From assembly GCA_965214705.1 (NCBI GenBank), contig OZ243972.1, forward strand, positions 2,624,001 through 2,688,000: 64,000 nt of DNA, read 5' to 3'. Made by a program: the position numbers and the translations under genes. Below, in pieces: positions 3,909-17,489 of this stretch (position 1 is its first letter; each line of letters opens with the position of its first letter). This stretch comes from Alphaproteobacteria bacterium. GTDB taxonomy: Bacteria > Pseudomonadota > Alphaproteobacteria > UBA828. The notes under the pieces are model-generated. The model was not told the origin of the DNA and did not search any database. It was given only the letters and a program-made list of their open reading frames with translations.

Positions 3909-3969
3909 TTTAACGACCACGTCCGGATCTGTGCGGGGGGCGCCGGAAAACCGGCGTCCCTACCGCGAC

Positions 3970-11195: not shown

Positions 11196-11804
11196 GGCTT
11201 CGTCTCCCTTTCGGTTGAAATCTGCCTCGCCTCCGTTGGCGCGGCTCTCCGCGCCATTTTTATTCAAACACCGCAAGTGCGGAGATACTGGTGCTGTTCA
11301 ACATATCCTCCGGAGCGGGACACTCCGAAGGCACACCATACGTAGGATTATTACAGGTATACATGCGCCAGACCTTCTTTCGCGAGTCGCTGAATGTTAG
11401 ATCGTGCCCTTCGGATGTTCTCCAGGAGATATCTTTCCGCTTCCGCTGTTCGTCCTTCCTTTAGAGCCAAAACGACGCGCTGGTGCTCTGCTTTCGTCGC
11501 ACTGAATCTGCGTTTATCATCGAAGTCAATACGACGAATTATATGAATGCGTTCATTGACATGCTGCAGATAGCTGAGAAGGGCATGATTGCCTGACAAT
11601 TTCGCAATAGTTAGGTGAAATTTCTCGTCGCTAATCAATGCTTGCTCGGGATCACCGTTTTCCGGAAACTCATCCCAAACCTCGTGAAGGCGCTCCAGCT
11701 TGTCCGGTGACAGCGATTGAGCAAGCGTAACAATCGCTAGCCCCTCAAGCGCCTCCCGGATGTCCCATAGCTCGTCCATCTCTCGTAAGAGGGGCAAATC
11801 CTGG

Positions 11805-12475
11805 GAGCGCCAGGCTAACTCTGTCGTGGATAGCCGGTGAAAGTCCGGTGAAGGGAAGGACTAACGAACCACCCTTGCCTTGAGCCGTGCGTCGGCCTTC
11901 GCGAGGAGGCAGGCGAAGCGTCGGTAGAGGTGCGCGTGGGCAGGACATTGAGCACCGAAAATGCCGTCATTCGGAGTGCCGAGGCCATCCAGAAGGTCGA
12001 AGGCAACACCGGCCGCCCGCTTTCGTGAGGGCCGGCAGGGCTCCGCGGTGTCCAAGACCCCAGGCACGCGCGTACGTCCACACAGGGGACCTGGGAGGCC
12101 TCTTCATCACCCGTGCCTCAGAGTGCGGGTCGTGACGGGAAGGGTGGATGCCCATAGCCGTCGATGTACGATGGGGAGGAATCTGACTCGGTCGTAGTAC
12201 CGTTGAAACGGGGGAACAAAGGGGCGTGACAACCTTGGCGGACTTCGTGGAGGAAAGGACCGGGGCCAACGGGAGATCGGGGACCTGAAGCATGTGCCGG
12301 GCACAGAACCGGGTAAGCATGTCACAGGAGGGTCTCCGAACACGCCGCCGTGCGAGACGTCGCAAGAGCGACGAGAGTGCGCCGGACGTCTGACCGGAGG
12401 CAGGAGCCGGATGCCTTAGCGGGCACGTCCGGATCTGCGCGGGGGGCGCTGGGTAACCAGCGTCCCTACCGCGAA
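11805..12475 (+). ncRNA. ORF-less group II intron (class E-like), domains I-VI
   Basis: DI motifs GGTGAAAGTCC, TTGAGCCG...GCGAAGCG, GCCGA...GAAGGCAAC; DIII TCTGACTCGGTCGTAGTACC; DV GAGCCGGATGCCTTAGCGGGCACGTCCGGATCTG; DVI ending CCCTACCGCGAA. Only a vestige of the IEP remains (MSQEGLRTRRRARRRK). Confidence 0.85.
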
Positions 12476-12522
12476 GATGAAGCGGCGTGATTCCGGCTTT
12501 GAGGTCCGGTTTGGGCAGGACC

Positions 12523-14190
12523 TCAGATGGCCTGCGGAGCGAGCACTGGACCAGCGGTCGGTCGCTGGCGCGCGAGGTCGGGGAGCCAGGGGACACTTTC
12601 GGCACCTGGGATGCCCAGGCGGTCACCGAGGTAGTTCCAGAATGAGATGCCGTGGCGGGCACAGGTCTTCATGTGGGTGAGGAAGGCGTCGCGGCAGGCA
12701 CGGCCTTTATCCGAGCGGGTTCCGCCCGAGACCTTGCGGCGGACGACACAGACGCGAAGGTCGTTCTCGGTACCGTTGGTGTGGGCCGGCACGTCGGGAC
12801 GGTCGAGCACGGCGAGCAGCTTGTCGCGGTTGGCTAGGGTGCGCCCGATCTGCTCGTCGAGCAGGCGGTAGCCGGTGCCGGTCCGGAAGGTGCGCGCGAA
12901 GCTGCGCTCGACGACGGCGCGTCTGCGCGGACTTGGCTGGCGGCAATAGGCGCCAAGCAGCCGGTACGTCCGCCAGATGCCGCCGCGCACCTCATCGACG
13001 GCCGCACGGCTGGCGTCGCTCCAGACCGGCAACGTGCGATAGAGCCTCTCGGCATGGATCCAGCACAGGAACTGGTGCAGGCCGAGGTCGAACTGGCCGG
13101 CGTCGTCGCTCAGGATGGCGCTGTCCTCGCGCAGCAGGCCATGGGCGAACAGACAGCCGAGCCGGGCGCCCTCGGTGGCGAGGAGCCGGGCCCTGGGGGC
13201 GTCGATCCCGAGCCCGTCGAGGAACGCCATCCACAGGTCAGGCCCGTCAAACCGACCACCGGCATGCCCCCTCAACGCGTCAAGCGCCCGACGCGGCATG
13301 CTGTGGCTCTCCATGTGCCGGAACGCTTCATCGTTCAGCACGTACTCGTCGAGGGCGCCGCACATCGTGTCGAGGAAGCTCAGCCGGCTCTTCGACCCCG
13401 TCGTTCCGAACCAGCCGAAGCAATCGTTGCCGATCGAGATGCAATAGCCGTTGCGCCCTTGATGGCGCGCGCCAGTGTCGTCGACCGAGATCCAGGCCGC
13501 CCCTTCAAGACCCGCCTTCAGTATCTCCGCCGCCTCGCCGACGAACGGTTCCCTGTTCCCGGTCAGCAGGCGCCGCACCTGACGCTCCGAGATGTCGAGG
13601 CCGATCCCATCGAGCAGGGCAGTGATGCGCGGGATCGTGCTCTGGCCCTGGTGGTAGAGCATCAGCACGAAGCGATGCAGCTCAAGGTTGAAGCCGCCGA
13701 TCACGCCGTCGGGCAGCTCAGCGACGATGATGCGCCCATCCGGCGTCACCACGCGCTCGCGCTGAAAGACGACGTTGTGGACTTCGAGTTCCAGCAGTTG
13801 GGCGTGATAGTCCTGGTAATCTTTGTGGACCGAGCCCTCGGGCGCGTCCTCTACGCAGACGACCACGCGCTTCGCGTCCTTGCGGCCCTGCTTGGGGCCT
13901 CGCCGCTTCTTCGAGGCGCCCGAAGAGCGCCGGCCTCCCTCCAGGCCCTTGCCGCCCGAGCCCTTGCCGTCTCCGTCGCCCGCGCCCGGTTTGATATCCG
14001 GCTTGCCGGGCAACCTCTTGAGTTGGCGGATCTCGGCCTTGAGCATCTCGATTGTCTCGGTGTGCACTGCGACCGTCTCCTTGAGACGCTCGTTCTCGGC
14101 ACGCAACTCAAGGATCGTTTCCGCCTGCGCGGCGTTCGTCGCCCGCAGTTCCTCGATCAACCGAGCTTGGGTTTGAAGCGAATCGACCAT
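12523..14190 (-). CDS. IS66-family transposase (555 aa)
   Basis: Coiled-coil N-terminus; WISVDDTGARH, ILSDDAGQF, LCWIHAER, HTNGTENDLR, RKVSGGTRS. Confidence 0.93.
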   Translation of the reverse strand: MVDSLQTQARLIEELRATNAAQAETILELRAENERLKETVAVHTETIEMLKAEIRQLKRLPGKPDIKPGAGDGDGKGSGGKGLEGGRRSSGASKKRRGPKQGRKDAKRVVVCVEDAPEGSVHKDYQDYHAQLLELEVHNVVFQRERVVTPDGRIIVAELPDGVIGGFNLELHRFVLMLYHQGQSTIPRITALLDGIGLDISERQVRRLLTGNREPFVGEAAEILKAGLEGAAWISVDDTGARHQGRNGYCISIGNDCFGWFGTTGSKSRLSFLDTMCGALDEYVLNDEAFRHMESHSMPRRALDALRGHAGGRFDGPDLWMAFLDGLGIDAPRARLLATEGARLGCLFAHGLLREDSAILSDDAGQFDLGLHQFLCWIHAERLYRTLPVWSDASRAAVDEVRGGIWRTYRLLGAYCRQPSPRRRAVVERSFARTFRTGTGYRLLDEQIGRTLANRDKLLAVLDRPDVPAHTNGTENDLRVCVVRRKVSGGTRSDKGRACRDAFLTHMKTCARHGISFWNYLGDRLGIPGAESVPWLPDLARQRPTAGPVLAPQAI

Positions 14191-14437
14191 GGACCCTCCG
14201 CGCGCAGGCTGTCCGTAAAGCGCGCGAAGTCCAGCGAAAAATGCGCGCTCAACCCCCTGATCCGGATCGGCAACGCGGTCGCGTCACATGGCCGGGCCCA
14301 TGGCCGCTGCACCCGGAACTGGAAGCGCGATGGCCAGGAAACGCCGAAGGTGGCCCGATGCCTATCACCAAGGACTACCGTCAGCGCCGGGCGTAACAGG
14401 GACCCCCAAGCGACATCACACCAGCTGCGCGCGCTCA

Positions 14438-14726
14438 CCAGGTCCCCTGTGTGGACGTACGCGCGTGCCTGGGGTCTCGGACACCGCGGAGCCCCGCCGC
14501 CCTCACGAAAACGGGCGGCCGGTGTTGCCTTCGACCTTCTGGATGGCCTCGGCACTCCGAATGACGGCATTTTCGGTGCTCGATGTCCTGCCCACGCGCA
14601 CCTCTACCGACGCTTCGCCTGCCTCCTCGCGAAGGCCGACGCACGGCTCAAGGCAAGGATGGGGCGTCAGTCCTTCCCTTCACCGGACTTTCACCGGCTG
14701 TCCACGACAAAGTTAGGCTGGCGCTC
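14438..14726 (-). ncRNA. Second, 3'-truncated copy of the group II intron (domain I only)
   Basis: Its reverse complement aligns to 11805-12094 with scattered substitutions; homology stops after GGGGACCTGG. Confidence 0.85.
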
Positions 14727-14999
14727 CCAGGATTTGCCCCTCTTACCATCTCTCGAAGATCGAATTTTCGGACGCAGTAGCCTCGACCATCCCTTGCTAC
14801 CAGGCCAGCATGTTCGAGTTTCTGCAGTGCCTCGCGCACGGGCGTGCGACTCACTGACAGGAGCTGGGCGAGACCAGTTTCAGTAAGCCGTTCACCGGGC
14901 TTCAGCTCAAATCTTAGAATACGGTCTCGAAGCAGATACGCCATTGCGTCGCTTCGTCTTCGGTGCCGCGGCGTTGCTACATTCACTGCTGTATCCCGA

Positions 15000-15011
15000 A
15001 ATGTATACAAT
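15000..15011. promoter_or_regulatory. Putative GntR/FadR operator
   Basis: Palindrome TGTATACA (15002-15009) in an AT-rich patch just upstream of the gntR start. Confidence 0.55.
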
Positions 15012-15128
15012 ATGATATGGAACATTAGTCGCGCTCCGTCCCGCATGTCAAGGGACCACAATCGAACCGACCACCGATAGGCCAGCATGCTGCACGTCAA
15101 CGGGTGAGGTTTCATCCACCGCACATAC

Positions 15129-17489
15129 ATGGACGCGGCCACGAACGTTTCATTCGGCTGGCCTCGCGGCGACACCTTCGCGATGGCCATGGTCCTGGCC
15201 CAGATCGAGGACCAGTGCCGTAATTTCATCGGGGGACCGGGCGCAGGGTCACTGGAGCATGTTGTGGAGTTCACAGCCGAGGCACGCTATCCGAGCCAGA
15301 TCTGGGAGGTAGAAGTACCGCTCCGTTCCAATCGATTTGCCTCGGACGCCGACGTGGCAGCCCTGCGCGCCGATTTCCACAAGGTCCACGAAGATATTTT
15401 CGCCATCGCAGATACGAAATCGGAGATCGAGATTGTCGGCTGGCGCGCGAACGTGCGCTGCACACTCCGAGAGGGCAAGGATAGGCGGCTGGTCGAAGAT
15501 GCCGGCGATTTCCACTCATCCGCGCGCAGGACGGTCTACCTGCCGGATGTCGGCAAGATCGAGGCAAAGGTTGTCCGCCTCGAAGCGATCGACCGGGGCG
15601 TCATTGTAGAGGGGCCGGCGATCATCGAATCGTCCTTCACCACCGTGGTGGTCGAGCCGGGCGCTGCTGTGGAGAGGCGCGCTTCGGGCAGCCTGATGAT
15701 CACGCCCCCTGCTCCGGCTGCCAAGGAGGTCTCGACGCTGGGCAGCCTCGATGGCGTACAATTGGCCATACTCAACAAACGCATGGAGGCACTTTCGGCC
15801 AAGATGGCCAACACGCTGCTGCGCACCGGACGATCCGGCGTGCTGAACAGCGCGCGCGATTTCTCGTGCTGTATCGTGACGGCCGAACACCAGCTAATCT
15901 GCGCCTCCGAGAGCCTGCCCGTTCACGTGCTGCGCGGCGCCGACCTGATGTGCGCTTCCATGAAGGAGTTCCACCCCGAGGTCGCACGCGGCGACGCGTT
16001 TCTGCACAACTCGCCCTACCACGGCAACACGCACCCCGCCGACCACACGATCCTGCTCCCTGTGATCGACGACGGCGGCATCCACCGCTTCACCATGGTA
16101 GCCAAGGCGCATCAGGCCGATTGCGGCAACTCGATTCCCACGACTTATCACGGTGGCGCGCGCGATGTGTATCAAGAGGGAGCGCTGATCTTTCCTGCCG
16201 TCCAAATTCAACGCGACTACAAGGACATCGACGACATCATCCGCATGTGCCGGCTGCGCATCCTCGTGCCCGACCAGTGGTGGGGCGACTATCTCGCCAT
16301 GTTGGGTTCCGCCCGCATCGGCGAGCGCGAGATGCTGGCCCCCGGCAAGGAGGTCGGCTGGGACACGCTCGAGCGCTTCTCGGCGCAGTGGATGGACTAT
16401 TCCGAGCAGCTCATGGCCGAGGCGATCGAGAAGATGCCGGAGGGCCGCGCGACTTGCGAGAGCCGGCACGACCCCTTCCCTAACGCTGAGGAGGGCATTC
16501 CGCTGCAAGCCGTGGTCGAGACGCGGCCCAAGGACGGCATCATCGAGGTGGACTTGCGCGACAACCCGGACAGCTATCCGTGCGGACTCAATCTGAGTCG
16601 GGCAAGCTCAGAGAGCAACGCTCTGCTCGCCGTGTTCAACGGAATTCCGGACCAAGTGCCGTGTAACGAGGGCTCGTTCCGCCGTATCAAGGTGCACTTG
16701 CGCGAGGGCAGCGTCGCGGGCATCGCGGTCCATCCGACGAGCTGCTCGGTGGCAACGACCAATGTCGCCGACCGCGTGGGCAATGCCGTGTCGCGCGCGA
16801 TCGCCAATCTCGGTGACGGCTTTGGCATGGCGAGCACGGGCTCGCTCCAGCCACCCTCGCTCGGCGTCATTTCGGGTGTAAGCGAGAAGACGCGCGGGCC
16901 TTACGTGAACCAGATCTTTCTCGGTTGGGGTGGCGGTGCGGCGGCACCGCATTGCGACGCCTGGATCTCCATCGGCCATATGGGCAATGGCGGTGCTTGC
17001 CATCAGGATAGCGTGGAGCTCGACGAGATGCGCTTTCCGTTGATCGTGGTCGGTCGACACTACGTGACGGACAGCGGTGGCTTCGGGCGCACCCGAGGCG
17101 GTGAAGCCATGTATTCGGAGTTCGGGCCCACCGAAGCGGACATCGAGGTCGGCTTTGTGAGCGATGGCAACATATCGGCTCCGGAAGGGGCCCGAGGCGG
17201 CGGGCCGGGCGCACGTTCCAATCAGTTCCGCCGTGCTCCCAATGGCGATCTCCACCAGCTGGAACCCTGCTCCCAAGCGATCATCTCGCTCGGCCACACC
17301 ATCGTGTCCTATTCTTGCGGCGGTGGCGGTTACGGTTCGCCGCTTGAACGTGCGCCCCAGAAGGTGGCGAGCGACGTGCGCGAGGGGTGGGCTTCCGTCG
17401 AAGCTGCACGTGAGATTTACAAGGTCGTCGTCAGCGCGGACGGTGAACTCGACAAGGCCGCGACAGACGCACTGCGCCGCTTCGGATAG
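15129..17489 (+). pseudogene. 5'-truncated fused hydantoinase A/B (oxoprolinase-family) gene
   Basis: Only the A-subunit tail (ARYPSQIWEVEV, GPAIIES..TTVVV) precedes a complete B domain (DFSCCI, NSPYHGNTHPAD, AHQADCG, GGGGYGSPLER). The A-type ATP-binding motifs are absent. Confidence 0.8.

Follow-up and report, generated by a model that had tools for sequence, protein, structure and literature searches.

A group II intron without an open reading frame in both ends of an IS66-like insertion sequence of an alphaproteobacterium

Several described systems bring ribozymes and insertion sequences (IS) together. IStrons are group I introns fused to IS200/IS605-type genes, which move as one unit and splice out of host transcripts. 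Group II introns without an open reading frame (ORF) are reportedly mobilised in trans by the reverse transcriptases (RT) of related introns in Thermosynechococcus and in archaea. The closest case is RmInt2 of Sinorhizobium meliloti GR4. In the main-text passages devoted to it, every copy is located in an inverted repeat of ISRm17, an IS that provides a pair of sites, one on each strand; four base pairs between exon-binding site 2 (EBS2) and intron-binding site 2 (IBS2) suffice, and copies also occur head to tail, where EBS3 can pair with the first G of the intron (PMC4615759, PMC5894124). The passages on target selection give CTAGTTC at positions -16 to -10 (PMC4615759), and ISRm17 is filed under ISNCY, in the ISDol1 group (PMC10194956). 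A literature search for an association of IS66 with group II introns and for ORF-less introns in IS ends found nothing nearer than RmInt2/ISRm17. The locus analysed here lies in a stretch of 64,000 nucleotides from an alphaproteobacterium (GCA_965214705.1, contig OZ243972.1), in the following called the window (G000:C1:2624001-2688000, where G000 is the source genome, assembled as three large contigs). At window positions 11785-14746, a unit of 2962 bp with a transposase gene and with group II intron sequence in both ends lies inside a gntR-type gene. Very probably, this is one mobile element inside another, an intron living in an IS, and not a fused element.

The two flanks of the unit are the halves of a single GntR/FCD regulator gene, both on the minus strand, with the FCD ligand-binding domain on the left and the winged helix-turn-helix on the right. 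The 3' half (11351-11784, -) was recognised by Pfam FCD on the ORF at 11351-11797(-) (E 1.5e-21) and the 5' part (14747-14944, -, the start near 14944 being an estimate) by the Pfam GntR helix-turn-helix in the ORF at 14648-15274(-) (E 8.6e-15). The same eight bases, CATCTCTC, stand at 11777-11784 and at 14747-14754, and the exact target-site duplication round the whole unit inside gntR, as described in a first-pass annotation of the window, was thus confirmed. One contig of the public run X4 joins 11775 to 14746 and skips 2970 bases (2962 + 8), which is the empty gntR site. Therefore, an intact gene exists elsewhere, and both the insertion and the duplication are genuine.

The ends of the unit form near-identical inverted repeats, which align as 11785-12032 with 14499-14746 (248 nt, 96%) and as 12030-12094 with 14438-14502 (65 nt, 95%), combined about 310 versus 309 nt with one single-base indel between the arms. 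Both start with a 20-bp tip, found by tip searches at 11785-11804 (+) and 14727-14746 (-), of which the left one begins with GTAAG, recurs in relatives of the IS and forms the 5' exon of the intron. In both arms, group II intron RNA follows. Rfam RF02005 (group-II-D1D4-6, gathering cut-off 49) matched the left arm at 11840-12060(+) with 168.1 bits over the full model (1-225) and the right arm at 14472-14691(-) with 155.4 bits, again over the whole model, so that the arms read inward from the ends. The repeats and their composition of tip plus intron RNA had been noticed in the first pass and held up on scanning with covariance models, which placed both arms above the gathering cut-off and only domains V and VI (RF00029) below it.

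The two intron sequences differ in completeness. The left one (11805-12475, +) is a complete ORF-less group II intron of 671 nt, 5' GAGCG ... GAA 3', antisense to the transposase gene. Besides the RF02005 match, its extent rests on the end-to-end alignment of RF00029 to the putative domains V and VI (12402-12475, +), and its boundaries are set by empty sites in copies 3, 4 and 5 of the IS (see below) and by contigs of public runs that skip 11805-12475. The gene for an RT/maturase is gone (671 nt compared to about 1.9 kb in an RT-bearing relative), and 21 codons followed by a stop (12164-12229, +), the translation of which resembles the RT N-termini of relatives, are a putative remnant of the lost intron-encoded protein. 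On the right, a truncated remnant comprising intron nt 1-290 (289 bp; 14438-14726, -), identified by the RF02005 match of 155.4 bits, lies upstream of the transposase gene on the same strand. It is 95.9% identical to the complete, presumably active intron and has kept both EBS loops. Whereas the full intron on one side was as first described, the other side was said to end after domain I; alignment with RT-bearing relatives places the endpoint, nt 290, inside the 5' ribozyme part and off any domain boundary.

A census of the source genome by BLAST and tip searches identified five copies of the IS. Copy 1, the reference, is the locus in the window, and copy 2 (C1:421541-424505, duplication CAACTACT) shares its architecture of a full intron on the left and a remnant on the right. 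Copy 3 (C1:1501614-1503904) equals copy 1 over all its 2291 bases (0 mismatches), has a right remnant and a duplication of its own, GATTGCAA, and lacks the left intron. The left end is also empty in copy 4 (C1:1859825-1863187; body about 95% identical, no duplication), which bears two complete introns abutting head to tail at its right end (C1:1859845-1860515 and 1860516-1861186; with the tip C1:1859825-1861186, locus L010, 826-2187), and in copy 5 (C1:4122988 onward; about 98.6% over 1589 nt, 23 mismatches), which is truncated on the right after unit position 2280. The transposase ORF of 555 amino acids is intact in copies 1 to 4, with three amino acid differences between copies 1 and 2. When up to three mismatches were allowed, the 20-mer tip occurred nine times in the genome, every time at an IS end. 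What follows the tip is the full intron in three cases, the 290-nt remnant in another three and directly the IS body in the last three, and the junction is constantly after tip base 20.

Sequence divergence separates the left intron from the rest of the unit. Copies 1 and 2 differ at 22 of 1960 positions in the body and at 7 of 290 in the remnant, but at none of 671 in the left intron, for which 7.5 differences are expected at the body rate (Poisson P(0) = 5e-4). As copy 3 is in addition empty on the left, the left intron is therefore regarded as recent and as added separately to copies 1 and 2. Five full copies of the intron exist in the genome, 100% identical over 671 nt, which appears to imply recent mobility. 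One of them is a solo copy (C3:1789188-1789858; locus L011, 1689-2359) that lies, in the sense direction, within a transposase gene of the IS91 family, with Zn_Tnp_IS91 upstream, Y2_Tnp downstream and no IS66-like tip. It was further observed, by eye, that this intron sits within a stretch coding for a conserved histidine motif; splicing would therefore restore the frame of the IS91 transposase.

Outside the source genome, the IS was met without the intron. Relatives in other assemblies (L001-L006; 72-87% amino acid identity) have the same 20-bp GTAAG tips and a total length, tips included, of about 2.07 kb, and Rfam gave no matches in L001-L007, so that the ends of these relatives are intron-free. 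Behind the tip of L001, there is a loose similarity to nt 1-17 of the intron; it was treated as chance, as Rfam found nothing there and the alignment was unsupportive. Among 44 genomes of the same family, only G000 and G043 contain the IS body, and the copy in G043 (87%) is intron-free. On these comparisons, the pairing of intron and IS is local and does not represent a conserved composite family. Contigs from three of four public runs (X1, X3 and X5; the fourth being X4) join 11804 to 12476, which corresponds to an intron-less left end, although one side of these tip-to-body joints is only 20 nt and they can be assigned to no particular locus. A query of public sequencing runs listed 12 long-read metagenome studies with the IS and no RNA run.

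The first-pass annotation had proposed a stable IS66/group II chimera, in which the 310-bp intron-derived ends are integral and possibly co-opted and the entire 2962-bp unit transposes as one. Part of this proposal stood. Copies 1 and 2 occupy two sites, each with an 8-bp duplication of its own, and agree in their full architecture, the remnant moves with the IS, and tip plus intron sequence works as an IS end in three copies, from which it follows that the left end with its full intron should also be usable. The right-hand remnant is present in all three complete copies of this IS subfamily, each with a different duplication; hence, the IS transposes together with the remnant, the 20-bp tip suffices at that end, and the dead intron fragment is a heritable passenger. 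Further copies with new duplications and the same intron-bearing ends were thus found at both ends in copy 2 and at the right end only in copy 3, and absence of the intron from other copies concerned the left full intron alone. However, the left intron could not be upheld as part of the transposing unit, since copy 3 is identical without it, the left ends of copies 4 and 5 are empty, it shows 0/671 against 22/1960 differences, relatives elsewhere are intron-free, a solo intron exists, and intron-less tip-to-body joints occur in three of the four runs. Nor did co-option of the long ends find support in the data, as the divergence of the remnant (7/290) is not lower than that of the noncoding leader upstream of the transposase gene (4/246 between copies 1 and 2), and there is therefore no sign of constraint for a function. 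The integral chimera is thus unlikely.

It might also be argued that the intron-bearing form is ancestral and that copies 3, 4 and 5 have empty left ends because the intron was lost precisely from the DNA. Recombination with the cDNA of spliced RNA is a known general route of intron loss, and such an event is possible for any single copy. Yet, three exact losses would be needed in one genome, and the scenario conflicts with the intron-free relatives and with an intron that is younger than the divergence of the IS copies, which makes it very improbable. An assembly artefact that misplaced the inverted repeat or the left intron among near-identical repeats, conceivable because copies 1 and 3 are identical except for the intron and a short-read assembler could swap five identical introns, is the least probable explanation of all, given a genome in three large contigs, flanks that together make up one gene and bear an exact duplication, the empty gntR site in X4, and contigs of X1 (possibly the source sample and hence not independent) of which one crosses from the gntR flank over the tip to the first six intron bases and another from the right end into the flank.

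That the intron lives in the IS as a mobile element of its own is consistent with the way it is predicted to find its target. The pairings were read by eye from alignments. The proposed EBS2 is an unpaired internal loop of the Rfam consensus structure (11958-11971, +), in which UGCC pairs with GGCA of the tip, and the proposed EBS1 is a hairpin loop of the Rfam structure (11987-11996, +), in which CCAGAA pairs with UUCUGG. The corresponding IBS2, GGCA, occupies positions -12 to -9 and IBS1 positions -6 to -1 of the tip. A related RT-bearing intron, C2a (C2:592876), has CUCAUC in the homologous hairpin loop and a 5' exon ending in GAUGAG, and its EBS2-homologous loop is likewise altered in step with its different 5' exon; the EBS assignment is supported because loop and 5' exon change together. 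The ectopic site in the IS91 gene shares its IBS with the tips, having GGCA, the spacing, CTGG and the G at +1 in common with them. All targets have a G at +1, and the intron itself also starts with G. Therefore, an occupied site would remain a target, provided that the G at +1 is all that is required on the 3' side, which explains the head-to-tail pair in copy 4. Since a single sequence, in inverted orientation, makes up both IS ends, the same homing site is present at each end on opposite strands, and both inverted ends are predicted homing sites in which EBS1 and EBS2 pair with the 20-bp tip.

What is seen directly is the structure of the unit, the variation among its copies, the unoccupied sites and the base complementarity; from these we infer splicing, reverse splicing, an RT supplied in trans and the following order of events. 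The IS would have come first and inserted into the gntR-type gene with an 8-bp duplication. The 671-nt intron, having lost its RT gene, may borrow an RT from related RT-bearing introns of the genome. It would recognise the tip by RNA-DNA pairing, EBS2 with positions -12 to -9, EBS1 with the last six bases, plus the G at +1, and insert between positions 20 and 21; insertions at both ends would then result in the long inverted repeat of intron RNA. The left intron may represent recent retrohoming that took place independently in copy 1 and in copy 2. The piece at the right end would go back to an older insertion that later lost everything beyond nt 290 plus about 24 bp of IS DNA and was then copied passively with the IS. 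In agreement with this, the remnant lineage, when compared to copy 4 and L001, is short of about 24 bp of the IS that adjoin the intron, and the three remnants of copies 1-3 are 94.1-95.9% identical to the full intron. As the remnant is common to copies 1-3, it would predate their spread. Aborted reverse transcription would keep the 3' end of an intron, whereas the remnant keeps the 5' end, which argues for a later deletion.

RT genes of related introns are numerous in the source genome. Among the 33 RF02005 matches listed for the source genome, 27 are above the cut-off, and related introns there carry RT ORFs with RVT_1 and GIIM domains, some nested as twintrons. At C2:398565-402499, C3:92354-96288, C1:791410-795650 and C3:26300-30377, a second RT ORF (MTRTSS...) was observed nested in or beside the intron's own RT ORF in a twintron-like manner. 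A helper RT for the ORF-less intron from these related introns is plausible on domain content. A further piece of intron was noticed in the window itself at 3910-3968(+), where 59 nt are 86% identical to the last 59 nt of the intron (domains V-VI). This stretch probably represents the 3' terminus of a different and heavily interrupted intron, whose 5' end is possibly located at C1:2612724, before the start of the window.

Several observations weigh against an intron that recently homed into the IS. An RT-bearing parent was found neither in G000 nor in the 44 genomes of the same family. Within G000, the closest relatives with an RT show an identity of about 68-72% over the 5' part and reach 91.6% over the last 83 nt only, and the nearest intron relatives elsewhere, in the 44 genomes, are 80-82% identical over about 300 nt and have unrelated 5' exons. 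Target pairing is imperfect. EBS1 (CCAGAA) matches the TTCTGG variant of the tip perfectly but forms a C-A mismatch with the CCTGG (UCCUGG) tip of copies 1-3, and the EBS2 pairing comprises only four pairs. Copy 4 is devoid of a target duplication, and the four public runs were examined as contigs rather than raw reads. Gene conversion between intron copies could also result in 0/671 differences, but is much less likely. Finally, RF00029 scored 32.8 bits at 12402-12475(+) (E 7e-4 in a 3.5-kb search), under the gathering cut-off of 40; as the RT-bearing relative L009 also scores low with this model (E 0.01 not reached), a low score of domains V and VI seems typical of the intron clade. At the 5' end, GAGCG replaces the usual GUGYG of group II introns, although RT-bearing relatives at C2:592876, C2:402499, C3:92354 and C1:1871277 start likewise. 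Intron relatives in other genomes (L026-L030) were seen to start with GTGCG, GTGTG, GAGCG or GAATG, the last in five G043 copies, and the second base of the intron thus appears free to vary in this clade.

The host of the intron is an IS of about 2.0 kb with a single gene, terminal inverted repeats of 20-22 bp and 8-bp duplications. Its body (12476-14437, -), delimited by the intron-free relatives of about 2.07 kb end to end, encodes a transposase of 555 amino acids (12523-14190, -), probably a distant IS66-type DDE enzyme, with an N-terminal coiled coil. The gene was correctly called intact, as the ORF is open throughout and residues 1-551 align with relatives. Pfam DDE_Tnp_IS66 (PF03050) scored 41.5 bits against a cut-off of 23.1, as a partial match covering profile positions 147-281 of 284, and NCBIfam transpos_IS66 (NF033517) scored 81.5 bits, far under its cut-off of 180. 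Low-stringency Pfam searches added only coiled-coil noise. In canonical IS66 members, tnpC is preceded by the accessory genes tnpA and tnpB, and the terminal inverted repeats begin with GTAAG. Neither tnpA nor tnpB was found among the three ORFs of the unit scanned with Pfam, of which only the transposase gave a match. Three of the four complete IS copies are flanked by 8-bp duplications (CATCTCTC, CAACTACT and GATTGCAA), and copy 4 by none. The name IS66 given in the first pass thus agrees with the GTAAG tips, the duplication and, in part, the Pfam match, but not with the NCBIfam score and the missing accessory genes. By its sequence, the element is IS66-like, a distant relative short of a certified member.

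More distant relatives of the IS (about 40% amino acid identity) are common on rhizobial plasmids, where they are annotated merely as 'transposase'. A 40% identical rhizobial relative has a terminal repeat of 23 bp that starts with GTACG and contains the same core. On pRmeGR4b of S. meliloti GR4 (L031 4292-6530, H9), an IS of 2.2 kb with a 41% identical transposase, again annotated as 'transposase' only, and with a perfect terminal repeat of 23 bp sharing the core GGGGCAAAT with the IS was observed beside a retron-type RT gene. It was considered whether this might be ISRm17 with RmInt2 adjoining, which is probably not the case, as no intron RT is annotated adjacent to it and its repeat is without the RmInt2 target.

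Around the split gntR gene, short palindromes of the TGTATACA/GGTATACA type were observed near its start (14990-15010) and its end (11350-11365), which are possible candidate operator sites of the GntR regulator. Prediction of promoters and terminators returned a single weak promoter-like site, which lies outside the unit, and did not detect a terminator.

The intron may in addition use the IS as a vehicle. As the remnant-bearing right end still works, IS copies loaded with a full intron may transpose intact and carry an RT-less ribozyme to new replicons or hosts. Of the two intron sequences of the unit, one lies in the leader of the transposase gene and one antisense behind it, and in read-through RNA the 310-bp inverted intron sequences could form a long hairpin and reduce transposase expression in this way. 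This extension is put forward tentatively, and we consider it doubtful. The locus as such is a natural record of three layers, a gene and two kinds of selfish DNA, the IS and the intron, and one genome holds target sites that are vacant, newly occupied, occupied in tandem and decayed. It also represents a natural experiment in which 20 bp of terminal repeat were enough for transposition of the IS.

Compared to the described systems, the locus has most in common with RmInt2/ISRm17, and it extends the behaviour of that pair to an ORF-less intron and an IS66-like element. It resembles an IStron in that a ribozyme and a transposase gene occupy one stretch of DNA. In contrast to IStrons, the ribozyme is a group II intron, moves alone (solo copy, empty ends) and, in the left end, runs antisense to the transposase gene, and ribozyme and transposase are not always together, as the solo intron, the IS copies with empty ends and the intron-free relatives show. 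With the IS66 family, the host shares the DDE_Tnp_IS66 domain, the 8-bp duplications, the GTAAG ends and the coiled-coil N-terminus, but it has a single ORF without tnpA/tnpB and stays far below the NCBIfam IS66 cut-off. Like the ORF-less introns said to be mobilised in trans, the intron is a compact ribozyme without an RT, present in identical copies in a genome full of RT-bearing introns and twintrons, whereas a close RT-bearing parent was not found in G000 and the 44 genomes of the same family. As far as RmInt2 and ISRm17 are described in the main-text passages on them, the likeness covers one insertion point shared by the two inverted repeats, with the intron in opposite orientation, occupied and empty ends side by side, a relaxed target specificity with four EBS2/IBS2 pairs, head-to-tail copies and a +1 position met by the first G of the intron. 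Differences exist as well: according to the same passages, RmInt2 encodes its own RT, whereas the 671-nt intron is ORF-less, and the RmInt2 target CTAGTTC is unrelated to the tip of the IS; ISRm17 belongs to ISNCY, whereas the host here is distantly IS66-like. A decayed 290-nt remnant carried by the IS to at least three sites was found here and is not part of those main-text passages on RmInt2. The locus is thus a new example of the habit, known from rhizobia, of introns residing in IS ends, and no new kind of fusion between a ribozyme and a transposon.

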